Shown: positions 7,731 through 64,000 of the stretch, one piece after another
How the letters are laid out: every line of letters begins with the position of its first letter
Numbering within the stretch: position 1 is the stretch's first letter
From: Amoebophrya sp. A120
Lineage: Eukaryota > Protista > Dinoflagellata
NCBI GenBank assembly: GCA_905178155.1
Contig: CAJINV010000003.1
Coordinates: 2,955,715-3,019,714, forward strand
Reading direction: 5' to 3'
DNA length: 64,000 nucleotides
Made by a program: the position numbers and the translations under genes
The notes under the pieces: model-generated
What the model was told of the DNA's origin: nothing
Databases searched by the model: none
What the model saw: only the letters and a program-made list of their open reading frames with translations

Positions 7731-10244
7731 TTAACTCGGGAAGTCATCGTCTCCGAAGACCATCTCTTCGTCATCTGACTCGTCGTCCGGAAACAGGCCA
7801 TTGGTTCGCAGGTAGGCATTTGCCTTCTCAATAGCGACGTCCTTCAGCTTGATGCCAAACCGACCCTTGTCCGGGTCTCCCTTCAACAGCGCAAACGCCT
7901 TGGTCTTCGTAGACCGGTCCTTCAGGTAGCAGCTGCTCTCCCCCATTTCCTTCAGCATCGCCTGCATCCACACGTCGGCAGTGGTTTTATCTGAAAAAAT
8001 TTACGAAGATTTTACCTCCTGCTTAAATTTTTGACACTGGTGGACTACAACACCCGTTCGATTTTTCGTCGATAAAGAAACACAAACACTTCCCCTGCTT
8101 TTCTTGCACGAAGTCCTCACAACCGAGGTGAAATAAAACGCTCAAAATCCTCGCGAAAAAGATACCTTGCAGTTTCTCGGGTACGTAGGCGACGCAAGCG
8201 AGGTCCGTATCCGAGGAGAAAATCATCTTTCCGACGTGGCCAGAGCCACCTTTTCGCTCCTCTTCGCTGGGGTCGGACTTAGCATTCATCGCGTCGACGG
8301 ACATCTCGGTATAGTCCAGGTCCCCTGCGGGGCAATCGACGGAGGTACCTGAGAAAAATATGTGTAGTTGTACGCCGGTCGCTTGCTTGTCAAAATTCTA
8401 TTTTGGTTCTTCTGGGAAAAGGGAATCAAAAATCCAAAATACAATCAAAGTAAGAAGACAATCATTTTCTGTACAGAAAAAGTTGAGGCCGCCCATGTCC
8501 GACACACCCTCGATTTCTACGCCGCGCTTGCCGCCCTCTTTCAAAACCTGAAGAGCAATGGAAATACGGAATAGTACACGCAGACATCTAAGCGGGGCAT
8601 ATCTCCTCGGGAATGAATCTACAACACGAACGTACCAGAGAATGTGCTACTTCTTATCTTACTCTTTCTCTTTTTTAGTTTCTTTCATCACAGAAGTGCG
8701 TATCGGTACTTACCTTCTTCTTGATTTGCTCCGGCGTCGGGCCAGCAGGTGCTTCCTTCTTTGCTGCTTCTGCCTTGGCTTTTGGTTGCTGCTTAGCCTT
8801 GGGTTCCGCCTTCGGTTTGGCAGCTGGTTTTGACGCGGCGGCCTTTCCCTGCTGCTCCTTCTTTCCTGCTCCCTTTGCAGCTTTTGGTTCTGCTGCGGGT
8901 TTCGCTTTTCCACCGCTGTTGAATACGGCCTTGAATCCCGGCTGTACCGTAATCAAATTGTACCTGAAGATAAAGATATCAAATCACGAAGGTAGCCTTC
9001 TAGTCCGAGAAGCGAGCGAGGAGCCCCGCTCTCATGCAAAATCTACACCGTCATATGCAATAAAGAAAAATGCTCTTCAGAATGCCTCACAAGGCTAAAT
9101 ACAAGAAATTGCGTTTTTTTACCATCTTCTCAAGTGGTCGAGCGGTTTCATGACCTCCCCAAGGATGTTGAGATTTTCTACGGCGTCCCACAGGACGGAG
9201 GCAATGTGGATGTCGGCGAAGGTGAGCTTCTCCCCAACCATAAAAGTGCGATGCAACAAGTGCTTGTTCAACACTTCCAAGCAGGTCGCCACGTCCAACT
9301 TTGCCCGAGCTGTCGCTTGAGTCACTTCCTGTTTTAGGCATCGGTGTTTGTCGATGTCTGCAATCGTTGTTCCATTTGTTTCTCGCTCCCAAACCGAAAC
9401 CGAATCGGAATCAGATTGATATTGATTTACATACTTACGCATGGCGCAGCACATCCAAAAACGAGTGGTGCCATCAGAAAAGTGATTGAAAAGTACCGGA
9501 AAGATCTTTTTTATCGGAAAGGCCCAGGCACACATCGGCGTCTCGAGCTCGTGCGTTGAATATTCAATCCAACTGTCAACTTCGCCACCCTCGATAAAGT
9601 TTTGCCCATACCTGTATTGTTGCACGCAGTTCGTCTTCGGTTGTTGAGTGTTTATCATGGATTCCCTAGAAGTGCATCTACATACAGACACGTTTCGCAT
9701 TGAACAGAAGACATTTTCCGGCATAAAATTTCAAAAAAAACTCCGTACAATCCGATATCAGGTCTGATGCGGGCCAGGTAGCGTCCGATTGCGTTCGACG
9801 CGAAGATGCATCCCTTGCCGGTGTCCAAAACAGGTATTTTGCCGAACATATCATTGCTCGTGCTTTGGTCGTCGATTACTTCCACATCGATGTCCGAAAT
9901 TTTCGCCATATCCTATGTAAAAACGTACCCACCCCAGAGTTGTCATGCAATTCTGCATGCCAAAAAAGTTTCTCATGCGGAGCCCTATGAGAAGCATTTT
10001 CTATTCGTGTTTTGGAATTTGTGATGCTAGAATCAGCATGGTAGGCTAGATCTGTAATGCTTCTGAGCTAGCGAAACAGGATTACACTACGAGGACAAAC
10101 TTGTCATGCCAAACGACCAAAGCTGTGTGATTTGTCTAGCAGATTTGCCAACTTGACTCTGGTGTGGGTACGTTTTTACTCAGGATACGCCAGCGCCAGC
10201 AAGCGCATCGTGCGCTCGTTCTCCTTCTTCGCGAACAGCTGCAT
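7731..10244 (-). CDS. GST-fold (eEF1B-gamma-like) N-terminal domain + Ala/Lys/Pro linker + uncharacterised C-terminal domain
   Basis: Spliced MQLFAKKENERTMRLLALAKISD...FGKIPVLDTGKGCIFASNAIGRYLAR...EVDSWIEY...LNKHLLHRTFMVGEKLTFADI (GST N and C motifs), then KEGGKRGVEIEGVSDMGGLNFFCTSVD...GGSGHVGKMIF and an acidic tail DDEEMVFGDDDFPS*. Several GT-AG introns plus one TIR intron. Confidence 0.7.
9909..10187. mobile_element. TIR introner family C (279 bp)
   Basis: Ends TATCCTATGTAAAAACGTACCCAC...GTGGGTACGTTTTTACTCAGGATA; direct repeat CGCCA at 9904-9908 and 10188-10192; removal gives in-frame LLALA|KISD. Confidence 0.92.
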
Positions 10245-11378
10245 TCTGAGTCGATATTGCCAATACTAGCGCAACGACCAGAAAATAGTATCAAAACTAC
10301 CAGAATAAACTAAGCGAGGCTCCTGTGTGTAGTACGCAGGGAAATGATGCAATAAATTCAGACTCAGAGGGGAAATGAAAAAAGCAACTTGCAAGATGTG
10401 AATTTTACTCGTTACAATACAACTTTGAAAAAAGTGGAAATGACCTTCAGAAATCCACCAAGCCTGAAAAAGTTGTGTTAGCCTTCGATCAAAAACAGTA
10501 GGTCATCCATCATGTGGAACTGCAACGCTGTGGCGTTCCTCGACAGTGAACGACAAAAAGATCCTTGAACTCAAGTCAGTACAGACCAGATCGTTCCTGT
10601 TCATGTAGCTTCATTAGAAGACTTGGACTTTCTTGCGGAGCGCAGCAAAAGGCGAGAGGAAGCTAGCGTGGAAGACAGCAACTCGATGTCTTTTATGTCT
10701 TCCTCTGCTTTGATTGCGCTGTTTCGAAACAGCATCCTTGCAGCTCCAGGAACAGGTACAGAGGTGCGCTCCCCGACAAACACAAAGTCATAGACAATGG
10801 AACTATTGCCTCGAATTTTTCTATTCTCTTTTGATATCTACAAATCGAAGTTCAGGTCCAGCTGGGTTTCATCTGCAATCTTACAAACGGGGTATAGTGC
10901 GTCTCCGCCACCAGGGAGTGTGTGGTAGTGGTTGATACATTTCCTACAACTCATCATTTCTTTAATCGGCACTGCAATGTTGCCATCTTAGTATCTAGAA
11001 TCGTAAACGAGTTCGAGTGCAGTGCACATTTTTGAGTTTATTTTGAGTCACTTAATCGAGAGTCTTGGACTTTTGTACGTTTCGCATTTACGTAGTCCAG
11101 ATCTGCTGCAGACATTAATTGGAAACTTGATGAAGCAAACTGCGTTAGCATTTTTGGCATGCGTGAACGCATTCGATGAATTTGTTCGAAAGTGGAATTA
11201 TTGCATTTTTTAGAATTTTCTCATATGTTGAGTGAATTCCTCGAGTGCACATCAACACAAGGGACGTCCTTACAACTCCATAGGATTTTGTCTATCAAGG
11301 TTTCGTACAGTACCCTGTCGGAGAGTCGAGGTTTTAAAAGCTTTGGGAAGCAGGTTTGCGTCCGGCGTTTCGCTTTCT

Positions 11379-14300
11379 TTAATCCGATTTCGTAAGCGAC
11401 ATTTTTATGTTCGGGGGAGACGCCAAGCTGACGAGCTCGTTTAGCGCGAACCGCTTCTCGAAATGCTGTTTCGGTGTCGGAGAGGACAGAGACGCGCTCT
11501 GCTCGTGTTCCTCCGTCGCCACCGCGACCTGCTTATTCTTGACCAGTTGCGAGGCCGTCCAAGACACGGGCCGCAGCTCGCTCGCTTCGTCAACGACCGA
11601 AGTGGCTGATATGGATGTGTCAGGATCGAAATCGACAAAGTCGAAAATTTTATGATGCGTAAAATGTAGGGCACTGAAGGCCTGTATTGGGGAGCAGGCA
11701 AATGAGACGGATTGTCAGCCTGTTTAGGGGTATGCAATGAGCTGCCAGAGTAGCATGACAGGAGCAGTATTCTTGCCCAAACAGCATGACAGACTGGATT
11801 TGGGTGCTCCCGAAATTTGTTATGTGCCACGTAAAAACTGAGGGTCCAACTGACATCGATTTTGTGCATCACAAATTTTTCGACTTTGTCAGTTTCGATT
11901 CTGACACTTCCGTAGCTGACGCGAGAAAGTTATCCGGATCTTCCCCCACTTGGATCGCGGCCGCCGCTCTGAGTTGGTAGAGGAGTTTTTTCTTCGACAT
12001 GAGGATCATTTCAGGCACAAGCACACGAAATCAGTGCAGGAGCACCACGACCGCAAACAAAGCCACCAGAGCGCAGTAAGTAGAGCAGAAGAAACCACCT
12101 CAACGACACAACAAATCACACACGATCAAAGCATGGCGCCATTCAAAATTTTTTTACATATTCCCGTCATCTTCCAGACAAAGAAATTGGAATGGCTCCT
12201 CCCCGTCGTCGCCCGACACAACATCCACGCTGGCCGCGTCCCGCGCATCCGGGTAAAACGCAAATCGATTTCCGCCAGCTGCCGTCCGTGTCCCCTGCGG
12301 TCCCTTGGCCTTCGCGGTGCCTGCAATGTGCCTCGAGACGGACTTGATGTTGGGCGGGGAGCGGCTTCCTGGTCGAGCAGAAGATCCACCTCCCTTACTA
12401 TTTCCCTGGTGCCGCTCGGCCACTTGCTGCACGAAGTGTGTCCAGCCGTCGCGTGCCTTCAGCAGAAACTCCGCGTACTTGCGCAAATCTTGCATGGTTC
12501 CTCGGCGCAGGTCTCGCAGATCCTCACGCATCGCCGCGGCAGTCCGCGCTGCATTCAGGAGCCGTCGCTGGTCAAGATTCGTGTTGCCATCTCGCGAGCG
12601 CAATTCGCGGGACAGCTGCGACACGCGCGCGTTCTGAAACCAGGAAAGGAAGGCCTTCTGCGAAATCTTCCGCTCTATCACTTTCTCGTACATGTCGCTG
12701 ATGTCCTCTAGGCGATACCTTTAGGATGCAGAATGACGTTCACGTTGCAACGAATTAATAGGAGCCCTTCCGTTGTTACTTCAAAGGCGACCAGAAAAAA
12801 CTTTGACAAAATCATGCAGAATCACGCACGGAAAAAAAAAAATTGAAGTGTGATAAGCTAGTGTACTTAATCAAAGCAGTATTTTTACGAGCTCGAAGCC
12901 GCAGAGCCTCCCGCAGCGCCTCCGTCGCTGCGTAGGGCGAAGTTATTTTATCGAGTGCAAATATGTCTGGGTCTGGAAGATTGCGAGAATTGTCATGCTG
13001 ATCTGGAATGGCCCTAAAATCTGTATTGCGTGGCCACAAACAGCCTCTCTCGCCTGTCATGCAAAAACGCAGCTTCTCATGCGGAATACGCAGCACAGAA
13101 GCACGAAACAACTTGTCATACTTGGCGGCGCATTACAGTGCATTTGTTATTGACTGACTTGCATTACAAGTTTCCAGACCCAGACATATTTGCAATCCAT
13201 ATCTTTTCCAAGCTCTCGATTTCTGCTGAGAATTTCTGCAACATCCTGGCGCGATCTTCTGCTGCTTTGCGCTGCATATGAATTGCAAATATGTCTGGTT
13301 CTGGAAGAGTGCATGTTTGTCATGCTTGTCTGGCATGACTGAAGTGTTTGTGATGCGTGACCAAGAAGAGAGCCTTTTGCCTGTCACGCAAATACGCAGT
13401 TTGCCATGCGGACAGCACAACACTAAGCAGCGCAGATATTTCTCATGCTCGGCTGTGCATTACACAGCATTCACTATTCCCAACCGAGCACTACAAGTTT
13501 CCAGACCCAGACATTTTTGCATTTGATACTGCACGGCGTCGCACAAGCGGCAGGGCTTGTCCCCATCCAAGCCAGGGGACCGATCCAGTAGGTCGCTGGG
13601 TGACAACCCCCCTCGAGAAGTGCCGTCGTCGCCGGTCCGCATGTCGAACATGCGCCCTCCACTGCTCTCGGAGAGCAGCGAAGCTTTCAAGGACCGGGAA
13701 AGCGCTGGCCCGCGGTCCGCGGCGATCTCGCGCTCGTGGCTGTACATCCGTTCCATGGACTTGGCCAACTCCTCTTGTCGAATCAGTTGCTCTTTCAACC
13801 GACTCACCTCGAGGCGGTGCTCCACTTTCAGCTTGGCAACCTCCGCCTCCGAGTGCGTCGTTCCGCTCTCCTCCTCGAGTCGCCGCTGTCGCCGCAACTT
13901 GGTCACTTCAAACTCAATCTCCTCCTGGCTTTGCCGTAACTTCCGCACCTCTTCCTTCAGCCGCCCATTCTGGTCCTCCAGTTCCCGCTCTCGCCTGCAA
14001 GAATTCATTGTTGTGTGAGGGAATCAAAAATGACTCGCGGTTTATTTCATAGGCGTGAATACCAAGAAGAAATAACGAGTAAGCCAAGCCCAAGCATTAT
14101 ACGAAAATAAAAGTGTACCTCGGCGAGCCCTTAGGAATGACCAGTTTTTCTTGCTCGCTTTTTGCCAAGAGGTCCTTGAGCTCGTCTACCCGCCGCTGCA
14201 GTCGTTCGATGTCGAGATCTTTTCGCTCCCGGAGGTCGCGAATCTCGCCCTGGAACCGAGCGAACCCCTCCTGCAGCCGCTCTACTTCGCGCGTTTGGTA

Positions 14301-17300
14301 GTACGTTTCCATTTCCTTCATCTTTTGCTCGGGCAGGCCTTTTCTCTCCGCATCGCGCTCGAATTCCAACAGTCTGCGGCGGTAGTAGTCCCGTTCCTCC
14401 TGCAGGAGGTTCTTCTCGTTGCGCAGCACCTCGATGCGTTGCTGCTGCTGGAAATAAGCAAACTGGTCCAGCATGGAGTTCGCCAGCATGGGGCTGCTTC
14501 CCATCAGCGCTGGGCTGTGCAGCATCTGCCCGGCGCTGGTGGGCATCAACTGCGGCGTCGTGTATGCGAAGGCGCCCTGGTGGTGTGCGGGCGGCGCTGG
14601 CATCGGAGTCGCGGGAAAAAACGCGCTCGTGTCGAGGGGCGGGCTCTGCCCCAGCACCGGGGAGGTCTGTCCGAAGAACGACGGCGACTGCGCATGCTCG
14701 GTTGCAGTTCTGCCGGCGGATGACGAAGACGCCGCCGCTGCCGCAGCGTTCATTTGCTGCAATTTCGTGGCGTTCTTCGCTTCCATATCCCGCATTTGCT
14801 TCTGAAAATCCCGCTGAAGGTCCAATTTTCGTTTCTGCTCTTCGAGTTCCTGCCGCTCCCGTGTCTTCTGCGCCTCTTCGCGCTCCTTGGCGATGGTCGA
14901 CTTCATTTCGTTCAGCTGCAACCGAAGCGCATTCATGGCCTCGTCGTTCTCGCGAGCAGCCTTCATGCGCGCCTCTTCGATCAGCCCGTCGCCAAACAAA
15001 GCATCCGGTTTCAGCGCAGAGACGTAATTTTTACCAGAGTCGGTCTTCTTTTCCTGCGCGGCTGCGATCGCGGGACTAGTACTTTTCGAAGAACCTACTA
15101 ACGGCGAAGTAGCTTTCGCAGTGGGGGCGGGCGGCTGTTTCTTTGCAACGAGAGGACTCCTGCTCCTCGATACCGCACCAGCCGCCACCCTGGCGGCTCC
15201 CATGGCTTGTGAAAGAAAGCCCGGACTCTTCCGCTGCCTTGTTTTACCTGCTGTGTCAAAGGAAAGGTCGTGATCATCCTCCTCGTCGTCTGGTGGGGGC
15301 CCGCGGGGCGAAGCTACGGGCTTTGCTGCCTTCGCGGGCGTGAGCGGGCTTTTGCTCTTGCCAGGAGCGCGCTTTGCAGCGGGAGAGCTTTCCGATCGCG
15401 CAGCAGCCTTGTACTTGCTGGTACCTATTCCAGGCGAACTTCGTCCTGGCGAAGCTGACTTTCCACCGCGTATCAGCGCTGCACTGGTGACTGCGCCGCG
15501 GGCCTTCTGCGTTGCTGTCTTCACTCTTCTTTCCACTGGCGAAGTACTAGCTGGGGAAGACTTCGATGGCGTTAGCCTTGCTTTTATGCGTGATTTTGGT
15601 GCTGCACCAGCACTACTGGGTTTTGGGTCCTCGTCTTTCGCAGACAAGCCCACTAGCCAACTGTCCGTAGCGGCTCTAAGCGCACCTGAAGCTTTCCCCA
15701 CGATTTCAGACGACGCTAGCGCAACAGCCGCTGTTCCGAGTGACTCGATTGCGTTCGGCACATCAACTCCTGCATCTTCCCTGCGGTCCTTCTGGTTACC
15801 ATCTCCCGCTGGTTGCTCCTCTGACACCTTGTGGGCGTGTGGTTTGTCTATCATAGCGGCGGCGTAGGAATGCGGGGGCGGGCTCTTCGAGGAGGTGGCG
15901 GGCGAGATCGGACTGATCACCTGCTCACTTACCTCTGGCACAATTGCAGGTGGAGATTCGCCGGCGGCGGCCGCGATGGCGGTTACAGCCGTGCTGGCTG
16001 CGGTACCACTTGCCTGTGCCAAGAGCTTCTCTTCCGCCTGCCGTCGGGCGCGTGCCCGACCGAAAAAGCCTTTCTTCACAGGTGCGGGAGCGGGTGCTTG
16101 CGGTCCCGGAGACGAGTCCGCACCGGAAGCAGTGAGGGCGTCCAGGCTTACGGGCTTCTTCGCTCGCTCCGCAGCCGCTCGGGCTTCTGCGGCACGCTCC
16201 GCAGCCGCTTTGGCGGCGGCCTCCACAGCCGCCGCGGCCGCAGCAGGGTCGTATTTGATGCCGCTGTCGTATTTTCCCCAAACCGAAGGCAAACTCTTCG
16301 GTGGCGCTATGCTTTTCTCCTGTAGCCCCGGCGGGAAACCCCCAAAGGTTTTCCGGTACACCAACAAATGCGCCGGCCGCGGGCCATCGATCACCGCCTG
16401 CAGGTATCAACTGCAAAAATGTCTGGGTCTGGAAACTTGTAATGCTGCGTTGGGAATAGTGAATGCTCTGTAATGCACAGGCAAGCGTGAGAAATGCCTG
16501 CGCTTCTTTGTGTTGCGTTTTTCGCATGACAAACTGCGTTTTTGCATGACAGGCAAAAGGGTTTGTTCTTGGACACGCATCACAAACTTTTTGGCCATGA
16601 CAGACAAGCATGACAAATCTCAAAATCTTCCCGACCCAGACATTTTTGCATTTGATAGCAGGTGCCTCGGGTTGTCGAAGGTGGATGACTTGTTCCCCAC
16701 CACCACCTCGTCGCCCTTGCGCAGCTGCTGCGTTTGGGCCCAGCCCCCGGGGGCGGTGTTTTTGATCGCGTACCCATTCGCATCTAGCCCAAAGCCAAAA
16801 TGCCTTTTATCGTCTTCCTTCGTTACTTGCAGGAACTTCGCGACCTCTAACCGGGGTAGGAAGTGAAAGAAAACGTAGTCGTCCCCGACCTTGTCGGTTT
16901 TGATGGTTTTCTCGACCAGCCGTGCGATCACCTCATCCGGATCGGAGCCCTCGCATTTCGGGAGAAATTGCGTCCGCGTACCGCATACGGCAAGCAGTAA
17001 GTCGCCCAGTGCCGCCTTCAGAATTTCTGTTTCCGAAACCTTGCCCACTCGAACAAACGGAAACGCGCGCCAGTCTAGCGCGAAGCCGAACATTTTTTCG
17101 AAAATCTCGCACGACCCGCCCAGCTCCGAGGCCTCGGTGACCATTTCCCGCGCTCTGCTATGCATTCGAAGGCACTTCACGCCGTACCGCACCTCTGCCC
17201 CGATGCTGCCGTCGCGTCCCTGCAGCAGGTAGGGGAACAAAAAAGGTGCTCCGTCTCGCGGGGAGTCCTTCGGGCCTTCTACTGGCTCTGGTGCCGGGGG

Positions 17301-40939: not shown

Positions 40940-42914
40940 TTACTTTTTCTGGATTTCCTCTCCGTCTTCTCGTGCTTTATGCAGATGTAAATTGAACGTA
41001 CCTGGAGTCCCCGGCTGCGTTCCGTACGCCGCGTAAGCAGCCGCTGCTTGCTGCTGGTCGGCAAAGCTTGCGAATCCCATCTGTGGTGCGGCCATCATGC
41101 CACTGGCCATGTCCAGTCCTCCATTTTGCATCTGCATGCCGCCCGCCTGGTTGTAGGAGTTCGGATCCACGTAGTAATTGTCCTGCCCGCCAAAGTTCCC
41201 GCCACCATTATCGTAGTTGTTTCGGTTGTTCTTGCCCCAGCTGTTGTGATTTTATTTGTGTAGTTTTATATATTGCAATAGAATTCTGCTTGATTTTTGT
41301 GAGCATGTCTACTTAGTACACCGAGTGAGAACAATGAAAAGCACATAGTCCTAACAAGATGCACCTTGAAAATAATGGAAAAATGTGCGTATAGTCGTAG
41401 TGTCTTGCCCATGACAAAAATCGAATTCTATCAATACCCGCCGCCGCCTTTGTTGTTATTGTATTTGCCCTTGCCGCCCTTGCCCTTTCCCTTGCCGCCA
41501 CCCTTGTTGTTGTTTCCCCAATTGTTGTTGCCCCAGTTGTTGTTCCCGCCCCAGTTGTCGTTTCCCCAGCCGCCGCCGCCGCCGCCCTTGTTTTTGCCCT
41601 TGTTGGCGTTCTTTCCACCTTGCGCGTAGGCCGCTCCCGCGGTGGGCTTGCAGTCGAACCACTTTCCGTCGATCTGGTTGTTCTCCTTGTTCATGACCGC
41701 TTTGTCGACGAACATCTTGTCGGAGAACGTCACATACCCGAAGCACCGGGACATACCCTTGGAGGGATCGAACATCACCCGCGCCTCCATCAGATTCGGG
41801 TCGATCTGCCGGAAAAACTCGTCCAACTTGGTCTGTGAAAGAAGTAAGACAATCCGCATAAAAAAATTTTGACTTTGATGTATCAGAACTACGGTACAAA
41901 ATACATCTTGCACATGCACTGGATGAACAAACTGATGATTCAACATGAAAGGGAATAACAACATCACAAGAACTGTGCCCTGCTCCTGCACCTTATCCAT
42001 GTATCAGTGTAATAGACTAGTATAATACCGAGTCGACGGTCTCTGCCAGACCTCCGCAGAAGATTTTGCGCTGCTCGATGTCCGCCTTGCCCTCGTTGGA
42101 AGACTTGTGTTCGTCGATGCGTTTCACCTCGCAGGCCTTCCCGTCGATATCCACGTGTCGGGTGATGCAGGCCGCCTCTAGTTCCTCCTCCGTTGAGAAT
42201 ATCAAATGCAAATATGTCTGGGTCTGGAAGGTTCTGAGACTTGTCACGCACGTTTTGCATGCGCCATGATGTCTGTGATGCGTGCCATAGCGTCACAGAA
42301 TTTTCGAGGGCAAATGCCCTCTCCGCGTAGACGAAATGGCGTTCCCTTTGCTGCTCATGCAATACAGATTTTTTCAGATGAATCCAAAGACAGCAACACA
42401 GGTTCCAAGCTTCCAGACCCAGACATATTTGCAATGCATAGAGAAAACGACGAACCCAAAACCGCGCGTGCGCCGGTGCCCGGTGTACTGATCGATGGAT
42501 CTGGTAGAGGTTTTTTTGTAGTGTATGAACTTGTTCGAGAGCAATCAAATTCAACCTTCTTTATCGCCTTTCATTGATTTTTTCAATTACTTATTTCATT
42601 TCCGCAAAAGTTCTTGTACCCAAGCTATTAATCTACGAAAATTATGAGAAAATATTAAGAGGTGATATCAAGTACTCCATGACGTTGCAGTCGATGACAT
42701 TGCCAAACTGCGTGAAGAAGGAGCGCAGCGACTCATTGGTGGTGTGCGGGCCGAGGCCACCCACGAACACCTTCTTCGTGTTGTCGTGCTGCGAGGTTGC
42801 GGTTCCTGGGGCCCCCATTCCGTAGTTGGGGCTTTTGCCGTTTTTGCCTTTGCGTTTACCTCCTCCCTTCTGTCCTCCGTAGTTGTTATCCGAGAACGGA
42901 TTTGAAGGCTCCAT
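40940..42914 (-). CDS. hnRNP A/B / Musashi / DAZAP1-type RNA-binding protein (2 RRM + Gly/Asn-rich tail)
   Basis: RNP2 motifs KVFVGGL and KIFCGGL; RNP1 motifs RGFGFVVF and RCFGYVTF; IDGK..EVK; GGGWGNDNW tail. 3' end uncertain. Confidence 0.85.
42200..42440. mobile_element. TIR introner family A (241 bp)
   Basis: TATCAAATGCAAATATGTCTGGGTCTGGAAG...CTTCCAGACCCAGACATATTTGCAATGCATA; direct repeat GAGAA at 42195-42199 and 42441-42445; removal gives RGFGFVVF|STEEE. Confidence 0.93.
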
Positions 42915-44405: not shown

Positions 44406-47400
44406 TCACAGCTCGTCATGCCCGAAGTTGGTCGAGTCGTCCGCTTCCTTCGCAAAGTTGTCGTCAATCTGGGCGGCTTTGCCTTTCTTCTTCTTGGCAG
44501 CAGTCTTCTTCACTTTGTCCGCGGCGCCCATCAAGTTGCCCTATCCGGAGTAAAAACGTCCCCACACCAGAATCAAGATGGGAAATCTGCTAGACAAATC
44601 CACAAGGCTTGGCTGTTGCGCATGAGAAGTTTGGCTTCGTAGTGTAATTCTGTTTAGCTAGTTCATCAGCATCACAACTCCAGCACATCATGCTGATTGG
44701 AGCATAACAAATTCCGAAATACGAATAGAAAGTGCTTCTCATGGGGCTTCGCATGAGAAACATCTTCAGCATGCAGAATTGCATTACAGCTATAGGGTGG
44801 GGACGTTTTTACAAGTGATATGCCCCCGAAGCCCTTCATCATGTCCCCAAGCCCGTCCATACCGCCCATAGACTCCATCATCTTGTTAATCCCGTCCACC
44901 CCACCGATGCCGTCAATCGTCTTATGGCTTGCTCAGATACTTGTACAATCACAAGTGGTACAACAGAGTCTGCTGGATTTCTTTGTCGTAATATGGTAGC
45001 TTTTTTACACCTCAAGCCATAAGAAAGTAGTAGTCGTCCACTTTACGACCAATTATGCCTGGGAGTATCATCATGATGAGCAGCATGGGTAACAAACAGA
45101 GCCATGCGCCTTTCCCAATACAAGTTTCGCCGGATTCCGGCGGGGTTGGGGGTTCGTGACCTTGGCATGCGCATGCCTGCGAGAGGAGGCCAGACCCGGA
45201 TCATGATCGCGATCTTCTTGCATCACATCAAATCAGCGCTTTTCTTTGTAAACCAGGTTGAGATTGTACTATCACCTCCTGAGCGGGCCATACATCTTCT
45301 TGACGCCCTCTTCGCCACCTATACCCTCAATCAGGTCGCCGATACCGCCCTCGCCGCCCAAGCTCTCCATCAAACCTCCCAGGAGGTCATCGAAGCCGCC
45401 GCCACCCCCGCCGCTTTTCTTCTTCTTTTTCCCCGCCTTGCCCTTTTTTTTGTCGCCGGCCTTCGCGCTGCTCTTCGTGTCCTTCGACTTTGCCGTCGTG
45501 GAAGTAGAAGCGGCGTCACCCTCGGCCGCCTTTCGCTTCTTTTCGCCACTCATGAACTTCGCGACGGCCTGAATGATTTCCGGGTCCTTGACGAGCTTCA
45601 GGTAGCACTTCTTGTCCGTGGGGTTGCACGCAACCACCTTCTTCATCAGGGCGGGATTCTCCATAATCACCTTCTGCATGTCCTTGTTCTTGATCAGAAT
45701 CTGAGTGAAGTTTGAATTTCGTGTGTCGATAATGATTGTTTGAATAGTGCGAAAATTGTCTTTTTGGTTCTCAGCTTAGAGCAACACCAAAAACGACCCA
45801 TGTTTATTATATTGCGCATTCCTTTTATTATTGTTTTCCTAAAAAGTGCTACACCTCCTTGATCTTTTCTGGTGTGAGTTCCGGTTCTGGTTCTTCGGTA
45901 GTATCTTCTTCCACCACGATTGGCGGCTCCTCTTCGAGGGCTTTGTTCCAAGTTCGCGTGATTTCTTTCATCTCCGCGGGGTTCTGCAGCAACAGCTGCG
46001 AGAACTTTTTCAGTGCTTCCACACCCATCACTTCTGAGGACAGCAGCGGGACCTGGTGGAGAAGCAATGAAGATGAACTAGAAGGACTTACGTATAATTC
46101 TCGGAGGTAAAAAGTGTTTGCTGCCGTGGAAAAAACAAACTACGAGCAAAGAACAGGCTGATCTATCAACAACTTCATGACAGCACTCACCTCAACAAGT
46201 TGGACTTTGTTTTGCTCCCTTTCGGGGCTGTATTTCAGTTCCGCGAGGTACTTCTGTTGCAGGGAGAATTTCGAGGAGTAGACTTCCAGCGAGTTGACCG
46301 CTTTTTCCACCACGGCCTGCGGGAGATCGGTGCTTGTTTTCAAGGCTTTTGTCACCTGCAACAACTCCGACCCCTCTTCCAGCACATTCTGCTCGCTCAC
46401 CAGCTGGTTTACGATCACGTGCGTGGCCTTGACCTTCCTCTCGTGCAGCTCGGCCAGCAACCGCCGCGTCTCCGAGACGGACAGATGCTCCGCCACGCAG
46501 ACCACCACGAACCGCGTCTTCTCTGGGTCGGAGAGCATCTTCGCCACCAGGTCTACCTTCTCGTGGTACCGCTGCAGCTTAATTTCCAGCTTCTTCTTGA
46601 ACGACGGGCTCATGCCGGTCAGGCCCGTGGCCCCGAAGGCGCTCGCAATCCCGTCCACCGCGTTCAGGGCCTTGCTCTGCAGCCCCTTGAGGGCGCCAAG
46701 CGACTCCGCGATGCCGCTCGGCAAGTCCAACAGACGCAGCGTGTGCCCCGTGGGCGCGGTGTCGAATATTACCTTGTCATACCTGATGAAGATGAAATGT
46801 ATGTTGTGTCCAATAGTACAGAAGTCGTGGACACACCAAGTAAACCCGGTCCGCCGGTCGTCCTCCTCGAACGCCCGCGGCACGACGGTCGTTGTTGAGC
46901 CGTTGCAGCTACAAGCTGTCACCGGAACACAAAAAGATCTGTTCTTTCCTTGTAATCATGTTGAAAAATGGAGACAACGATAAGTAAATCCACGCGCCGG
47001 TTGCGCGACCTCGAAATTAATCTACTCTTACCGTCCAGACTTGACGTAGGTATGTGCGTCGGCGAGCGCGATAGCCTCGTCAATACCCTGCAGGCTGTGC
47101 ATGGAGTCCTTGGCTTTCTTGACCATTTCGCCAATTATCAAAATGCAAAATCCCCCCACCCCATATCAAAATGGAAATCTCTGATGCGGGATTTGTGTAC
47201 GCGAATCGGCTTTGTGTTGCGGTAGAGGACTGCAGGCAGGTGCACAGCCTGAGGAGGGGCGTTTTGGTGTAGGCACCGAGCAAGGCAGGCACATCCTCTG
47301 TAGGCGATACAGCATTACAAATTGCCTGCGCAACGCAGCGGAGTCTCTGGAGTTGCCTTCGTGCAATACAGAGACGATTTGTGGTCACAAATCAGCAACG

Positions 47401-48370
47401 CAAATTTTCAGGAGTATCCCTTTTTAGTATGGGGAGGGGGATTTTTCATTTTGATACCAATGGCCCCGCCCTCCTCCAACAATTCGTCCCACTTTGTAAG
47501 CTCCTTACTCAATATCAAATGCAAAAATGTCTGGGTCTGGAAGCCTTCCAGGTTTGTCATGCATATTTTGCATGACTCAGGATGTCTGTCATGCATGCTC
47601 TAGCATCACATATTTTTCGAGGCCTTCCTGATGCCTATCCCGCATGACAAATGCCCTCCTCGCGTAGCACAAACTGGGCTCCTCTTGCTGGTCATGCAAT
47701 ACAGATTTTTTTAGCATTCAAAGTTAGCGTCACAAGTTCCAATCTTCCAGACCCAGACATTTTTACAGTTTATACTCAACGCGGTTTTTGGGTCCAGCTC
47801 CAGTACATCCAGGTTTGGCATCCCCTTCACTCCCGTTGGCTCGCCCCCGAATTTCTGCTGCCATGCATCCCCGGTAGAATGTGCGGGGTCGGTGGACACC
47901 AGGAGAATCTGTACAGAAAAAATGCACTTTTGTTAGGCAAAAAAAATGATCTTTCCAGGCGCAAACGCATTTTGATTTACAGAACGCGCCGAAATAAATG
48001 TTCGCACAACAATCGCACGATGCGGGCAAGAGTGAGAAATGAAAGGTTTGCATGCATGGGCTTACCGAGGTCGCGGGAATCAAAAGAGTTGTGAAATCAC
48101 ATAAACAAAAACCTTCTTGTCCTTTGAGAGCTGTGCTGCTAGTGCGGAGCTGGTAGTTGTTTTTCCCACTCCTCCTTTACCGCCAACGAAGACGAACTTT
48201 ATTTCATCATCCAGCAAACTGCCAAGCGTCGCGTCATTTCTCGCAGGAGCTTCCTCTTCCGCGCGGAAGCAGGCCGGAAACATACCGACAAAAAGAACGG
48301 CGGCGGCCATCGGCCGCCGTGCGAGACCACAAGAGGGCGCCATGGAATCTCGGCTGATGGCCCTTGCCAA
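44406..48370 (-). CDS. Get3/ArsA-family ATPase with predicted signal peptide, STI1-like tail and HDEL
   Basis: Motifs [47 protein letters not shown] and VIVNQL. Hydrophobic N-terminal [16 protein letters not shown]. Ends [11 protein letters not shown] (TGA at 44406-44408). Confidence 0.85.
44542..44820. mobile_element. TIR introner family C (279 bp), inverted orientation
   Basis: TATCCGGAGTAAAAACGTCCCCAC...GTGGGGACGTTTTTACAAGTGATA; direct repeat TGCCC at 44537-44541 and 44821-44825; removal gives KGFGG|NLMGAA. Confidence 0.92.
44923..45292. mobile_element. TIR introner family D (370 bp)
   Basis: TATGGCTTGCTCAG..GTACAATCACAA versus reverse complement of the right end TATGGCCCGCTCAG..GTACAATCTCAA; flanks CGTCT/CATCT; removal gives GVKK(M/T)|IDGIGG in frame. 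Confidence 0.8.
47136..47456. mobile_element. TIR introner family B (321 bp)
   Basis: TATCAAAATGCAAAATCCCCCCACCCCATA...TATGGGGAGGGGGATTTTTCATTTTGATA; direct repeat CCAAT at 47131-47135 and 47457-47461; removal gives EGGAI|GEMVKK..GIDEA. Confidence 0.92.
47513..47774. mobile_element. TIR introner family A (262 bp)
   Basis: Family A TIRs; direct repeat CTCAA at 47508-47512 and 47775-47779; removal gives DPKTAL|SKELTKW. Confidence 0.92.
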
Positions 48371-56604: not shown

Positions 56605-58185
56605 CTAGATGGATACCCTGCTGCTGGCGCTTCCCCCGCACTGTCGCTCTGGTCCTTCTTCTTCGCTCGCTGCTTCCGAGGGGAAGTTTTCTGGGACGAT
56701 CTCCACAGTCTTCGATTTCGCAGCGAGTGCTTCTTGGCATTTTTGGATTGCCGCTTCGTCAAGACGACCGTGTGATCTCTGCAGTCGTCGATCTTCAACC
56801 GCAGCTATGCAGTGCAAAAAAACCCTCTGGCTCTCAGCATCGCTTTCTTGCTTCAACTGTTTTTCTTTCCTCTTCTTCTCTCTCTCTTCGCAGTACTGGC
56901 CTCTTTTCAAAATTGCCGCTCTGATGTTCTTCATTTGAAGATTATAATACAAAATGCAGCGACCTACTGATGAAGGATGGTCGTGCGTGTGCCCAGTAGA
57001 ACGCGGGAGCAGCTCACGCTGGAGTCAGAAAAATCATGCGGATGAGCAGACACCTGAAAGCGAGCCCGATTTCTGCACGAGCCAGAGACCACCCCCTTCG
57101 ACTACTACCCTTGCGTACTTCTGGGCTAAGGAATTGGAACCAAAACTTGGTCAGTGGATCCAGTCCGACGTCGGTGTACGCATACTGCCATCTGGGAATC
57201 CCCAGGTGCGTCATCATCAGCCGGTAATAACTGGTAAAACCGTCCGCAATGAAAAACCAGGCACCGCTGACGTCCTGAAACCACACCCCGGACCAATTTC
57301 CCTCCTCCAGTGGCTGCGCCTCTTCCGCCGGGGCTGCTGCCGTCGTCACGGTCGTCCCGCCCGTTAACGTTGTTGTTGTTGTACCCGGGTCGCTTATCTT
57401 CCGCCGCAGGCAGACTTTCCCACCGACGCACTTTAAATCGAGGTCAAAGTACGCGTACCCGCTTTCCTCCGCTACGCTTCGAAACTGCTCCAGATTGTTC
57501 AGGTGCATCGACCCGTACGGAAGCACCTTTGACCGGATAGCAGCAGACCACTTCAGGTACAGACCTTTATTGACAGTTTGTTTTTGTTTTGATGTTCTGC
57601 CGAAACCGATAGCATCCTGATCTTTCCTACTGCGATTCTTCGCACTCAGTCGAATGTTACCCGGTACTAAAAGTCGGCAATCTAGTAGGATTGCGGCACT
57701 CATTGGAAATCCAGAGGACGCCGACGTCCAGACATGTTTCAGTTGTTTCACCAAAGAACGAGAGACTGCTTAAGCATCAAACATGATTTTCAGCACATCA
57801 CAGTCGGTCGTTTGCAAGAAGAAAAATTGCAGCACCGTCTAAAAGAACCAACCATTTGTTATCTGCAGAAACGCCTTCAGATCGTCTGGGAGCCGCAACC
57901 CGTGCCTAGTTTCCCAAGCATGGATGGCAGACCCGGGGCATGGGACTCGATATCCAATGCAAATATTTGTGTCCGGGCCAACTTAGGCACGTGTAGTGTC
58001 AAGCAGATTTTGCAATGATGTACGAAACGCGAAGATGCTCCTTCTCCCTCGTCTGCAGACCCGGACTAAATATTTGCATTGGATATGGGACCTTGAAGAA
58101 TGATCTCTGAAACACCCTGGTGCCGCTCCAAGTACTCGATTGCACAGAGCGAGAGATCGTCGAAATGGTCGATGCGCCGCTTCAT
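56605..58185 (-). CDS. TPGS2: Tubulin polyglutamylase complex subunit 2-like (SMI1/KNR4 fold)
   Basis: AWE..LPDDLKAFLQITNG, LPYGSMHLN, GKVCL, WFQDVSGAWFFIADGFTSYYRLMMTHLGIPRWQYAYTDVGLDP. 3' end uncertain; it may extend to 56172. Confidence 0.8.
57951..58085. mobile_element. Short family-A-like TIR introner (135 bp)
   Basis: TATCCAATGCAAATATTT-GTCCGGG at both ends, inverted; flanks diverged (sense TCCCA/TCGAG); removing the element plus 5 nt restores ILQG(RV/PI)PCPGSAIHAWE. Confidence 0.8.
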
Positions 58186-59148: not shown

Positions 59149-62100
59149 TTATGTAGCAGAGGATCCCTCGTACATGTATCAAAGTGAAAAAAACCCCCAC
59201 CCCATATCGGAAACGGAAGACGCGCGAATTTGTGATGCTGTATTTGAGTACACAAATCGACTTGTATTGCTAGAGGGCCAAGAGACGAAGCTGCGGCCTA
59301 AATTGCAGGCAATCTGTCATGCTGTTTCCCACTTCCAGTTGCCTCCTGTCATCCTGGAGCTGCAAGGCTTTCCCACGCTAGGCAGCACTACAGTCCGCAC
59401 TTTTTGCCTTCTAGCATCACAAAGCTGATTTGTGACCACAAATCTGCATCACAGATTTCCGTTTTGATATGGGAAGGGGGCATTTTTCATTGAAATAACA
59501 TGTCGTCACGCTTCAGGTACTCCTCCGTCTCGGAGCCGAAATCCGCCATGATAATCCGCTTTTTGATGTACGTATTTTCCTTCTGGTCTTCCACGCAGTG
59601 ACTCGCACGGACGCACCCCGTTTTGCACGTCCTGGGATTGGACGCATCCGCCGCAAGCTCGTCGCACTTCGTTTGTGTTATTTGCTTGGTCTTGTCAAGG
59701 GGGTTCGGTATGGGGTTGAAACAAAATCTCTCCGCACCTTTCTCTTTCTCAAATTGTTCTTTATTACGTCTCAGGACGGAGCGCTGGTGCGCTAACTACA
59801 ACTCGGTGCTGGCATGCAAAGAGAGGCGCGAAGGAATGGTATTGCGTTCAACTTTGATATCAAACAAAATCGCAGCGCAGTCGGCCGCACTGATTAGAAA
59901 GACGATGTCCCCCGGCTTGGCCTGTTTTGTGCAGGTTTAATATTTTTGGTACAACACGAACAGTATCGCTCGTGAAACGAAAAACGCCTCGTCGTTCCAA
60001 CGCGGAATCACGTCAAGTACTACTTCTGAGAATTATTTAACGGTTATTCTGCGTACATCATATCCTTTCGATTTTTAGGTGCAGCAAAAAGAAAACCTTC
60101 TGTGGGGTCGTCCCGCATCGAAATGAAAAATCCCCCCACCCCACACTCGAACGGAGGCTTGTCATCGACGGGATCTGTGTACACAAATCGTCTGCCACGG
60201 GATCGCAGCTCCCTCCCAGAACTTTTGATGTGTGACGTAGCAGTATAGCTTGCATTCGCGTACGTTGGATGGACGCATCATGCAGGCTAAAACGCAGTGG
60301 ACATCGGAACTGCCTAACTCATCTCACTCTCTCTTCATGCTAAACATCTGCGACCACAGATCAGCATGCCAAACCTCACTTTTCAGTAAGGGGAAGGATG
60401 ATTTTTGCTCGGGATATCCCGTCTTCTTGGACGTGAGTCACGTACTCCACGCTACCGGTCGCACTGCCACCTGGTTTTCTATGAACCTGAACCGTGCCCC
60501 ACAGCCAGGTAAATTAAGGAAAAGTTGTAAAAAAAAAAATTGTCCTGATGCAAGAAGTCGAAAGACTGCATATTTATAGGATTAGCGCTCCTTACAGTGG
60601 CCAGTGATCGATTTGAAGCACAGTGCTGCAATGCAAACTCTCTACCATGACAATATTGCAAATGTTACTTAGTAAACGCCATACACAAGGTGAGGTTCTT
60701 CATCACGAGCTTCCATCAGAGTTCGCATTACCAACATTGGTGAGGCACTCTTCAAGTTGATATTTCCGAACCTTGAGCTCCAGACCGTCAGTCGGGACGG
60801 TGATTCGGTGCAAAAACATGTAGTATCACACAGAAAAAAAGAAGCAGACCGTATCTCAGATGCAAAACGAAACCCAGAAAAAATCCCCTGCAGCGTGCTG
60901 TCTCAGCGAGGAAAAACAATGCCCAAGAAATTCATTTCTGCATCATCATAATCATCATCATTTATCCTGCACTTGGGGAGAGGGGGCGTGCGGAGGGGGG
61001 ACGTGCAGCATCATCATCATCATCATTTATCCTGCACTAGGGGGGGACATCAAAATTGATATCGCGCGCTAGCTCTATTTTCCCGGGATAACATGTTGCT
61101 TAGTGTCACAGCGATCCGACTCGCTATCCGGGCCGGGTGTGCGGCCTTGTTCCTCTACATCTACTGATAGTACGATCTCATACCCGAAGGCTAACAGGAA
61201 GAGATGAACTGCCGACATGATCATGTGAGCACGTAACAACATAAATATTTCACGAGATAGATGTCGGGGCAGGGACGTCTTCATACAGTATCGCTGTGAA
61301 ATTTTACCCACCACCACTTCAGCTAAAGGCTTGCGATCGCTTTCGTTGCAGCACTCACGAAGCCGCTACTTTTTGCTGCATGCCCAAGAACTTGTACCGT
61401 TCGCCTTCTACTTTCGTGCAGAACCAGAAGGTAAAAAAGACTCAAGCAGGCATGACTCATGCAGAAGTAAACTTACTCGACGCCTATTTTTCATGCTGTA
61501 GCTTCGGATTTATGGTGGTGACTATCGCTTTTCACTGGGATATTGAAATGCACAAAACCGCCGCAATCCTGTGAAGGCATCGATAAATGTTTTGCCAATT
61601 CATTCAGAATTCGCAGCAAGCTACTTGGGAAAATATGCATTGACTTCACGGTCACCATCCCACCTGTCCTGTATTTGTGCCAACCACACGATAAGAAAAA
61701 AGAAGTATATGCGGTAGCTCCAGCTGCTGCGCCCGCAAATAAATACCTTGTTCTTGGAACACATTTCCGCCGCGAGATCGAGCTGCAGGGCCGTTGTGCC
61801 TGCCTCGGATTTCTTGATGATCGCATGCTTTTTTGGTTTTCCCCAGCGACAGAACTCCGTTCGACCAGGCGGCAGGTAGTTGAGCACGGTCTGGTTGTAG
61901 TGCGAGAGGATCGTTGTTTCCTGAACCCCGGAGTCTTCAATGGATTTTTTCGCTAGCTCCGTCAGACACGGGAACTCGACCATCAGAGCGTGCAGCCCGT
62001 TTGTGCAGTCCTGGCGCTTGTACTGCACGAAGGCCATCTTCGGGTGCCAGTCCTTCATGAACTTCTTCTGCGCTAAGTCGGCGCTCACCTCCGCTGTCAC

Positions 62101-62295
62101 TTCCTCCCTGAGCTCCCGCCGCATCTTGGTGGTTTCCTTCTTCAACTCACTACGCAGTAAAGAAAGTACGCTCTGTGATCTGCTCCGGCGCGCCAGTGTT
62201 TCCTTGGTGTCCTGGAGCCGCGCACTCTCCCCTGTCCAAAGCTGCCATGTCGCGAGCGAAACAGCCGCACATGCGTAAGTGCTGCTAATTCTCAT
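59149..62295 (-). CDS. Predicted secreted Cys-rich protein
   Basis: Signal-peptide-like MRISSTYACAAVSLATWQLWTGESA; exons join in frame: CSKNK|DCGGFVHF..WFCTK..VAAS|KPGG..TPQK|VRRFCFNP..HCVEDQKENTYIKKRIIMADFGSETEEYLKRDDMYEGSSAT*. One junction (61430-61542) is inferred. Confidence 0.6.
59177..59497. mobile_element. TIR introner family B (321 bp)
   Basis: TATCAAAGTGAAAAAAACCCCCACCCCATATC...GATATGGGAAGGGGGCATTTTTCATTGAAATA; direct repeat ACATG at 59172-59176 and 59498-59502. Confidence 0.9.
60116..60416. mobile_element. Diverged TIR introner family B (301 bp)
   Basis: CATCGAAATGAAAAATCCCCCCACCCC...GGGGAAGGATGATTTTTGCTCGGGATA; direct repeat TCCCG at 60111-60115 and 60417-60421; removal gives QEDG|TTPQK. 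Confidence 0.8.
60940..61046 (+). repeat. Duplicated (CAT)n-TTATCCTGCACT-G-rich unit inside an intron
   Basis: Two copies, at ~60940-60980 and ~61007-61046. Confidence 0.7.
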
Positions 62296-63492
62296 TCCGT
62301 AAGGGCTTACTGTGGTGTGTGAGCACGGGTGTGTGGAAAGGAATCGACTGCAAAGAGCCCGTGATCGTGTGCCCCCGTTCCTTGACTTGCTACGACGCAG
62401 CGGTGCTTGTTTTCCACAACCGCAGCCTGGGGATTATTCGCCGTGCGTCTAAATTCTCCCATTATCATCACTCATGACGCAAGAAACAGGCGGCATGACT
62501 ATTCCTTCTTTATCTATTTCTTCGCGCTGCCACTCATCTTCTCTCAGTTGGTGCCATCAGTTCAAATGCTGCAGAGGAACGACCACGAAAACAGCGCAGC
62601 GGCTCTCAAACAGTTGATCGCAACATGTGGGGCAAGAATATCATCATGATTTCTGCAAGGTAGGTAATACACACCTACAACCCCCATGTTTGTATGGGGT
62701 CGTACTATACACATACACACCCCAAGATGATGATGTTGTGGACTCGATAATCATCTTCCGCTCGTAACTCGAGACACGCATCGCGTGTCCCTGTCCCCCA
62801 TCTAATTTAGTGATGACGATTCCATGTGCTGAGGACTATCAGTAAGTTCATTACTCTCCCTCACCCTCAGCTCACCCTATTCCCTGGCAACGCAAAGGCT
62901 CAAAACGAACGCACAACGCCGCTTCAGACCAGGAAAGTCCTCGTCTCCTGCACAAAGGCAGATCTTCGTGCACTGTGCGCGTTCTATTTCTCATGAATAT
63001 CGATTCATTTTTCAGCCACCACCTTCGCGGGGCACAAAAAACGAAAATTAATTATTATTATGCATTTCCTCAATCACCAACAAATTACTTTCCCTGCTTT
63101 TGCATGGGTCATGTTTCTATCTTGTCAGGTTCATACCATAAATCTTGGATAATAATCATGTGAACGTTAGTACAATCTCTGCAACAAAGACGTGCTATAG
63201 TATCTGAAGTTGAATCGGATCGACTTATTTTTCAGCATCTTACACGTATGGTAAAAGTAATTTCAGTAAAAATATTACTGTAGACCTAGTGCAAATCTTG
63301 CACAGTGGTTCAGCCATCCGTACACGCAGTTCCAGTTTTGTTATCAGGGCGGTGCATTGATGGAGAGACGATATTAAATAGCAGACCTGACAAACCACAA
63401 TCCGACTTCTGATTAAAATAGGTGTCTGTCGACGATCAAAAATGCTCAGAACTTTCCTGTGATTGTAAGAAGATCGTCGTCTCGCAAGTGGT

Positions 63493-64000
63493 TTAGCGCC
63501 CCGCCGCCGTGGTCGTGCTCGTGCTCGTGGTCTGGCCCTCGTACATGTCCGCGGCTGTCAAGTAGTCCTCGGTCTGGGATCCGAAGTCCGCCATGATGAT
63601 GCGCTTCTTGATGTTATCCTGAGCAAAAACGTCCCCACCCCAGAGTTGTCATGCTAAACAAAATGCGACACACTTTGGCCCCCCATTGTACCATGGCCAC
63701 AGGACCCCAGAGTTGTCATGCAGATCCGCAAGCACAAGAGCATTTGTAATGCGCATCCTCATGAGAGGCATTTCTCATCGTGTTTTGTGACTTGTAATGC
63801 TGTGAACAGGATAAGGAGATGGATTTGTTATGCGGATTCCCTTGCTAAACTGCATTACACTACAGCCTGCACCTTGTCATGCGTCGCTCCCAAAACTTTA
63901 AGGTTTGTGTTGCAAAATCCCCATCTTGACTCTGGAGTGGGGACATTTTTACTCAGGATAGATGTAGGTGTTCTCCTTCGCATCCTCCTTGCAGTGCGAC
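63493..64000 (-). CDS. 3' end of a paralog of the 59149-62295 Cys-rich protein (partial)
   Basis: After element removal it reads HCKEDAKENTYI|KKRIIMADFGSQTEDYLTAADMYEGQTTSTSTTTAAGR*. Confidence 0.85.
63615..63960. mobile_element. TIR introner family C (346 bp, internal duplication)
   Basis: TATCCTGAGCAAAAACGTCCCCAC...GTGGGGACATTTTTACTCAGGATA; direct repeat GATGT at 63610-63614 and 63961-63965. Confidence 0.92.

Follow-up and report, generated by a model that had tools for sequence, protein, structure and literature searches.

The stretch analysed here (the window) comprises 64,000 nucleotides of contig CAJINV010000003.1 of the dinoflagellate Amoebophrya sp. A120 (positions 2,955,715 to 3,019,714 of the forward strand) and carries a set of short elements with terminal inverted repeats (TIRs), which interrupt protein-coding genes and are missing from transcript-type contigs. 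In a preliminary description, made from the letters of the window alone, 14 such elements had been listed; all were found at their proposed starts (by which they are named below), with lengths of 135-370 bp and with the ends claimed for them, TAT in 26 of 28 termini, TAC in one and CAT in one. TIRs were searched for as TAY-like inverted ends, complementary bases being scored in 24, and 10 shuffled windows served as control. The TIRs of the 14 elements contain 14-23 complementary bases in 24, and a perfect 5-bp flanking repeat combined with at least 16/24 TIR matches was obtained 10 times in the window and not once in the shuffled windows. A relaxed scan for the end motif yielded 33 candidates in the window against 6-16 in shuffles and was too noisy for adding elements. 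The 5-bp repeats attributed to all 14 elements are perfect in 11, whereas 12949 and 44923 have one mismatch each and 57951 has three. The earlier inventory was incomplete, as five further introns of the same kind had been overlooked; four of them (56806, 59709, 60802 and 61289) were found via RNA contigs alone and have decayed repeats. The total is thus 19 elements (14 + 5), together 5,471 of 64,000 bp (Table 1). Every host reading frame lies on the minus strand, and the elements themselves occur in both orientations (16405 is opposite to 13277, and 44542 to 9909). That GT-AG ends are not constant had been stated before; neither GT-AG nor GC-AG was found in any register in the 19 window elements. 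The hallmark of A120 introners, an inverted repeat starting with TAT followed by about seven looser bases and a run of A, was present.

Table 1. Positions of the elements in the window and of the introns that contain them.
Feature	Element	Strand	Intron or skipped sequence
Family C element, GST-domain gene	9909..10187	-	Predicted intron 9905-10188
Family E element	11610..11914	-	Predicted intron 11606-11915, from the open frame only
Family A element, repeat with 1 mismatch	12949..13201	-	Predicted intron 12945-13202, from the open frame only
Family A element	13277..13528	-	Predicted intron 13273-13529, from the open frame only
Family A element, partial PDZ match	16405..16657	-	Predicted intron 16401-16658
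Candidate decayed element without repeat	40978..41138		TAT/CAT-ended inverted repeat, 13/16
Family A element	42200..42440	-	246 nt skipped in X5 contig
Family C element, ArsA/Get3 gene	44542..44820	-	284 nt skipped in X5 contig
Family D element, repeat with 1 mismatch	44923..45292	-	375 nt skipped in X5 contig
Family B element, ArsA/Get3 gene	47136..47456	-	326 nt skipped in X5 contig
Family A element, ArsA/Get3 gene	47513..47774	-	267 nt skipped in X5 contig
Old element, repeat 0/5	56806..57117	-	Intron 56802-57118, unambiguous (X5, X3)
Short element, repeat 2/5	57951..58085	-	Intron 57947-58086, unambiguous, 140 nt (X5, X3)
Family B element	59177..59497	-	326 nt skipped (X5, X4)
Old element, repeat 1/5	59709..59859	-	Intron 59705-59860, 156 nt skipped
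Family B element beside a 14-nt exon and a GT-AG intron	60116..60416	-	306 nt skipped
Element, repeat 4/5	60480..60762	-	288 nt skipped
Old element, repeat 2/5, 3' end ATC	60802..61259	-	Intron 60798-61260, unambiguous (X5, X4)
Old element, repeat 2/5	61289..61542	-	Intron 61285-61543, 259 nt skipped
Family C element	63615..63960	-	351 nt skipped (X5, X3, X4)

Among the host genes, ArsA/Get3 and GST_C domains were recovered as Pfam matches and PF09346 is assigned in the database to the host of 57951; for the names TPGS2 and RRM, which had also been proposed, no confirmation was obtained. The host gene of 9909, which we take to be EF1B-gamma-like, has a public protein model that is gapless across the site in comparison with four homologues, and homologues are likewise gapless across 47513. 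At 16405 the join falls in an open frame of more than 1,200 codons with a partial PDZ match under the Pfam cut-off, and a homologue search with the exon beside 13277 gave no match. The gene at 58582-62606 contains eight introns, six of them non-canonical, and its exons include some of 14, 23, 24 and 33 nt. When spliced and retained models were compared, keeping any single element shortened most host reading frames. The candidate at 40978-41138 sits beyond the 3' end of the open reading frame (ORF) 41431-42003 and may be a decayed intron of an untranslated region or an intergenic copy; the statement that none of the elements is intergenic holds for the 14 as checked, while this candidate lies outside the nearby long ORF.

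Removal from transcripts was followed in contigs aligned to the window, which span the elements from 42200 onward and thereby cover 9 of the 14 originally listed elements (42200, 44542, 44923, 47136, 47513, 57951, 59177, 60116 and 63615). Transcript-type contigs were those of runs X5, X3 and X4 over 56000-64000 and of X5 at 42200-47774, in which part 15 of 31 joints were listed in the contig alignment. In 9/9 elements examined, the element plus 5 nt was skipped, as had been predicted, and the same contigs also skip GT-AG introns, including the contig of the Get3 gene. The spliced model of the gene at 58582-62606 is 1,874 nt long, which equals the length of the X5 contig. Altogether 27 junctions were examined, 14 non-canonical and 13 GT-AG. 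The loss of element plus 5 nt seen in the contigs agrees with the restoration of the frame noted before; such restoration is, however, expected of any target-duplicating insertion, so that the frame cannot fix the junction and is not diagnostic. The length of the element plus 5 leaves a remainder of 0, 1 and 2 on division by three in 7, 1 and 6 of the 14 elements; because of this spread the frame alone cannot separate removal of element +2, +5 or +8, and it is the contigs that do so.

Contigs of the DNA-like run X1 are unbroken through 56806, 57951, 59709, 60116, 60480 and 61289 at a depth of about 28, and no element-free joint was present over these six elements in X1 contigs, which lose rare variants. 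These contigs bear on the idea that the elements are excised from DNA, in the manner of the internal eliminated sequences of ciliates. The TA-like ends of the elements resemble those of ciliate eliminated sequences, and the combination of TIRs with a target duplication suits a transposase. Against excision from DNA speak the continuity of the X1 contigs (X1 is possibly the source of the assembly itself), the absence of GT-AG introns from the same contigs that are free of elements, and the matching repeats that a staggered cut would require; we regard it as extremely unlikely. Short X1 contigs within elements reached depths of about 1,900-2,300 compared with 28 for the flanks, and the elements therefore belong to families that are repeated in the A120 genome. 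In three raw reads of run X9 (47512/47774) a family A end was joined to a flank that is absent from the window; these reads are family A at another site, in unspliced RNA or in DNA.

Every equivalent cut was enumerated at all 27 junctions, and a single register fitted all 14 non-canonical ones: the intron consists of 1 nt, the element beginning with TAY, and 4 nt. Three junctions without shared bases (56801>57119, 57946>58087 and 60797>61261) allow no alternative register, and therefore the element ends, not the repeat, set the cut. The joint 57946>58087 showed zero shared bases in two runs, the joint of the 60802 intron has 22 letters on its shorter side, and the junction of 44923 allows the 5' cut only directly at TAT or 1 nt ahead of it. 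When 17 offsets between the 5' and 3' complements were tried, the best offset was 3 in 19/19 elements and in 0/13 GT-AG introns; at the three unambiguous junctions this value is independent of the chosen cut. Across the 57951 site, GPV is read in both homologues of the host protein; registers 1 and 2 reproduce this reading, and registers 0, 3, 4 and 5 do not. The register could be resolved because decayed repeats abolish the ambiguity of the cut. With a perfect repeat there are six cuts that cannot be told apart, and this is likely the reason why published borders appear variable. Taken together, the elements are very probably removed at the RNA level in the register of 1 nt plus 4 nt.

The same junctions were weighed against an artefact, namely that the skips are template switches of reverse transcriptase over a hairpin between direct repeats ('falsitrons'). 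A hairpin with a short direct repeat is the anatomy of falsitrons, and in the CD19 case disruption of one repeat abolished the artefact (PMC8240250); the libraries are presumably from cDNA, and the terms 'RT-PCR' and 'template' do not occur in the main text of Farhat 2021 (PMC7789003). However, three junctions have no shared bases, and at 57951 the junction bypasses a 7-nt microhomology at element+10. Conserved genes need the removal (the homologues are gapless across 9909, 47513 and 57951), most frames are shortened when single elements stay, and the ends were kept under selection as the repeats decayed. An artefact of this kind is very unlikely.

To separate the signal from bases that are free to vary, the four introns found via RNA contigs alone are informative. 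Their repeats match in only 5/20 positions, compared with 22/24 for the terminal TAT/ATA bases (Fisher p 7e-6), which suggests that selection has preserved the element ends without preserving the repeats. The removal signal does not include the 5-bp repeat. In the 1+4 register TAY occupies positions +2 to +4 and RTA positions -7 to -5, and U is found at +2 in 19/19 window elements. Folding z-scores ranged from -3 to -9 in 14/19 elements (-5.4 for the 57951 intron). The predicted pairing probability at +2 was at least 0.9 in 6/19 elements, and predicted pairing at +2 to +9 was near 0 in 56806, 60116 and 60802. The stem-guided removal shared by all families that had been suggested from the letters is upheld in part, in that one rule extends over the families and the ends matter; a perfect stem is not always predicted and the repeat is no signal. 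Pairing of +1 with -4 as an extension of the stem was dismissed after inspection of the junction list.

For comparison, a related assembly was searched, in which at least 148 matches were obtained among the matches listed; 147 loci were used, none of which matches unique window sequence, and 171 elements were taken from them via internal anchors. An exact 5-bp repeat flanks 119/171 of these elements, against 14-15 at repeat lengths of 2-3 and 0-3 at lengths of 4 and 6-10, and both element orientations occur. Statistics on end bases were restricted to 108/171 elements after removal of 49 that were unoriented, 12 with a repeat below 4/5 and two duplicates. Orientation was computed with a coding model, for which local and locus scores were concordant in 53/60 cases; some ends are displaced by insertions or deletions, which would blunt asymmetries. 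In the TIRs of the related elements, positions 1-3 and 11-28 pair at about 90% and positions 4-10 at 62%. The TIRs look bipartite, with positions 4-10 varying even between both ends of one young element.

The origin of the elements by insertion was visible within the window. The tandem paralogues at 58582-62606 and 62990-64000 (minus strand) contain reciprocal empty sites, the one for 59177 near 63546 and the one for 63615 near 59568, each with one copy of the 5-mer; the elements therefore arose by insertion with a 5-bp duplication. TIRs, a target duplication of constant length and no coding capacity characterise them as non-autonomous TIR elements of the type of miniature inverted-repeat transposable elements (MITEs). 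Three long family A copies in the related set (L023:632-1465, 834 bp; L049:3862-4492, 631 bp; L070:4024-4995, 972 bp) are flanked by perfect 5-bp repeats, and these copies of 631-972 bp contain no ORF of more than 137 codons. Neither a transposase nor an integrase was detected among the 16 ORF stretches scanned in the window, no autonomous or nested element was found in the checks of the window and the long copies, and phage matches were absent from the window. Farhat 2021 likewise report that no transposase was found in A120 (PMC7789003). In Gozashti 2025 an A120 TIR family with Copia/Gypsy-like ORFs, family 38, is given as 'Ginger, 5-bp TSD, TA/TA Termini', TSD standing for target-site duplication (PMC12130899). 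This family is likely the mobiliser of the window elements.

Copies of the nonanucleotide TTGT(A/C/G)ATGC or of its complement number 23 in the window, all within elements, in families A, B, C and E; the motif is present in 10/19 elements and absent from 9/19, and is possibly a sub-terminal repeat bound by a transposase. This motif, together with a total overhang of 5 nt that equals the stagger of a transposase, could be taken to favour self-splicing or removal by a domesticated transposase-derived protein that acts on RNA. The interiors, however, differ by family, copies of 135 bp or decayed copies are still removed, 9/19 elements do without the motif, no match to a ribozyme family was obtained, and the sum of 1+4 also follows from selection restoring the messenger RNA. 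Both variants are therefore rated as highly improbable.

The reading that we favour, at roughly even odds (about 0.5), is that these are non-autonomous TIR transposons which insert into exons with a 5-bp duplication and are removed from RNA by an altered spliceosome that uses the hairpin as a ruler. The elements would be mobilised in trans by an integrase-type (Ginger-like) transposase, a step that is proposed because family 38 of Gozashti 2025 combines a 5-bp duplication with TA/TA termini. Removal would take place inside the cell from the precursor messenger RNA, where the TIR stem, possibly held by protein, would join the two ends and replace site choice of the U1/U2AF type. N-U-A-Y would be taken as a donor that lacks its G, and the acceptor would be counted 4 nt off the stem. 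Since 1 + 4 equals the length of the duplication, any insertion in either orientation restores the original messenger RNA, which would permit spread without target preference.

That the catalyst is the spliceosome is a tentative assignment, held at slightly less than even chances. GTAT is the commonest canonical donor in the window (6/13), and the register places U-A-Y at +2 to +4. In Table S4 of Farhat 2021, T is second in 9/9 predominant A120 motifs and 9/9 motifs of strain A25 start with TT; the TIRs of the two strains differ, the spliceosome proteins of A120 are nearly complete, and the U1 small nuclear RNA is described there as undetected (PMC7789003). In the P complex of yeast, U(+2) pairs with A51 of U6.

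Several observations weigh against an altered spliceosome. The yeast structure shows two pairings in the second splicing step, of G(-1) to G(+1) and of A(-2) to the branch A; it thereby accounts for the requirement for G(+1), A(-2) and G(-1), three positions that are free in the window elements and their relatives. Among the 108 related elements, +1 is G in 31 (28 in a strand-mirror control) and the intron ends in AG in 3 (control, 4), so neither G at +1 nor terminal AG is enriched; GT/GC-AG was found in some register in 7/108, and +1 and -1 were not associated (p 0.13). TAT is conserved alike at the 5' and 3' ends, in 96 and 97 of 108 related elements and in 17 and 17 of 19 window elements. 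The 5' excess expected of a donor alone was not found in either set, and this symmetry is what is expected of a symmetric stem or a transposase signal and not of a donor alone. Moreover, positions from +2 onward would lie buried in the stem. Stems of the related elements have no excess of G-U (46 G-U and 54 A-C; 46 and 68 at positions 4-10), whereas those of the window set contain 22 G-U and 9 A-C (p 0.03, one of six tests). The motifs in Table S4 depend on where the aligner places ambiguous junctions, and a strand error may underlie CT-AC. The register itself relies on three unambiguous and four partly ambiguous junctions, and since the host genes share a single strand, a flip of the register with transcription is shown by none of the junctions. 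The RNA nature of the runs is presumed, the contigs are assembled and come from a single study with two samples, and they are possibly the same data behind the public gene models; the raw-read runs X9, X10 and X11 matched the window with just 12, 3 and 4 reads.

Much of this would be accommodated by a separate endonuclease and ligase that cut the single strands 1 nt ahead of the TIR stem and 4 nt past it and join the exons, which we consider possible and rate clearly below even odds. The free positions +1, -1 and -2, the symmetric conservation of TAT and the strong hairpins would be expected of such an activity. Removal by nuclease and ligase has been proposed for the nonconventional introns of euglenids and diplonemids, and euglenid introns, which have TIR-paired ends and a fixed offset, leave as full-length circles; for these, routes resembling RNase III or tRNA splicing have been put forward. 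Three introns, however, are removed without a predicted terminal stem, and the window gave no Rfam match. Moreover, two strains whose TIR families are unrelated both have U at +2, which suits the spliceosome better. We know of no enzyme with a 1/4 offset. In a broader form, A120 would clear most of its introns via a second, non-spliceosomal nuclear machine that reads only the UAY/RUA ends of the stem and cuts 1 nt ahead of them and 4 nt past them, which we rate at about one chance in three; any Ginger-like insertion with a 5-bp duplication would then become a scar-free intron.

Returning to what is published, the window elements are members of the known A120 introner class, as had been recognised from the letters alone, and earlier publications already describe the elements, their removal and the idea of a hairpin. 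Database proteins with 100% identity to two exons of the window carry the source name Amoebophrya sp. A120. Farhat 2021 describe A120 introns of about 240 nt, supported by RNA-seq, with inverted repeats of 8-20 nt and direct repeats of 3-5 nt (5 bp in the legend of Fig. S19) and a hairpin model (PMC7789003). Shared with them are the inverted repeat starting with TAT, the A run, the direct repeats and the mixing with GT-AG introns. In that account, no clear splice signature is given, sites are variable relative to the hairpin, the border is unknown and the mechanism is left open; here, in contrast, all 14 junctions conform to one 1+4 register, the repeat is not needed and U occupies +2 throughout. 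The A120 TIR introners of Gozashti 2025 are similarly DNA elements of 150-350 bp with TIRs and mixed splice ends, and family 38 agrees with the window elements in duplication length and termini; it has Copia/Gypsy-like ORFs, and the window elements contain no transposase ORF. That study gives automated duplication lengths of 2-6 and several modes of recruitment, compared with one rule in the window; a common cut rule is not stated in the 38/58 A120 rows examined, and the coordinates of family 160 suit 1+4, given our reading of unlabelled columns (PMC12130899). Table S4 of Farhat and one row of Gozashti are thus consistent with the 1+4 register and U(+2). A literature search, with the figures of Farhat 2021 and parts of the supplements of Gozashti 2025 outside its scope, returned no paper stating a fixed register; relative to the published descriptions, what appears to be new is the 1+4 register, together with the invariance of U(+2) and the finding that the repeat is not needed.

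Outside Amoebophrya, the introns of euglenids and diplonemids resemble the window elements in TIR-paired ends, a fixed offset, TSD-like repeats, the absence of GT-AG and coexistence with spliceosomal introns (PMC11282704, PMC12621601). They differ in cutting at 3 and 5 nt with CAG/CTG, compared with 1 and 4 nt and TAY/RTA here; the euglenid CAG at +4 to +6 and CTG at -8 to -6 were absent from the window elements, which carry TAY at +2 to +4 and RTA at -7 to -5. Circular excision products have been shown there, whereas the window elements are known from contigs only. The MITE-derived introns of Fritillaria borealis also combine TIRs with a TSD and have escaped GT-AG genome-wide; their preferred ends are AG-AC and AG-AT, often with a first and last base compatible with pairing, whereas the ends in the window look unconstrained. 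With its diverged U2AF paralogues, Fritillaria is a precedent for TIR-derived non-canonical introns spliced by a modified spliceosome (PMC13326754). The introner-like elements of the dinoflagellates Symbiodinium and Polarella have TIRs, TSDs of 4-8 nt (5 nt in one class) and in part activity in both orientations, but recruit, out of the TSD or out of the element itself, donors that start with G and acceptors with AG, neither of which the A120 elements need (bioRxiv 10.1101/2020.10.14.339549).

The 1+4 register is a new testable rule, drawn from few junctions. Non-canonical introns make up about 65% of the RNA-supported A120 introns in Table S4 (PMC7789003), and their mode of removal has lacked an explanation since 2021; with one rule for the cut it becomes testable, and the splice motifs listed as 'variable' reduce to a single defined substrate with fixed junction bases. 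The intron 57947-58086 offers a minimal substrate of 140 nt, and the rule permits re-annotation of tens of thousands of borders. If the altered spliceosome is correct, it would work without G(+1) and AG, which is unusual; if nuclease and ligase are, a second chemistry of messenger RNA splicing would have arisen independently of the euglenid one.

Some further features of the window were noted. The 463-nt old intron contains a twice-repeated segment (60930-61050) at which X1 depth is elevated and several runs show loose ends; a different repeat therefore lies inside this intron. An ORF of 1,911 codons that gave no Pfam match has several repeats nearby (30794-33700): a segment of 57 nt recurs exactly and in direct orientation at 30794 and 32105, an inverted repeat of 44 nt lies at 32174/33645, and tandem arrays of 52 and 32 nt occur as well. 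Three long ORFs in the region 16620-22901 (minus strand) gave PDZ matches and contain an unknown domain that recurs every 1-1.3 kb or so. The 3' ends of the 13 GT-AG introns (42500-61747) are rich in A and C and show little of a polypyrimidine tract; six of these introns begin with GTAT.

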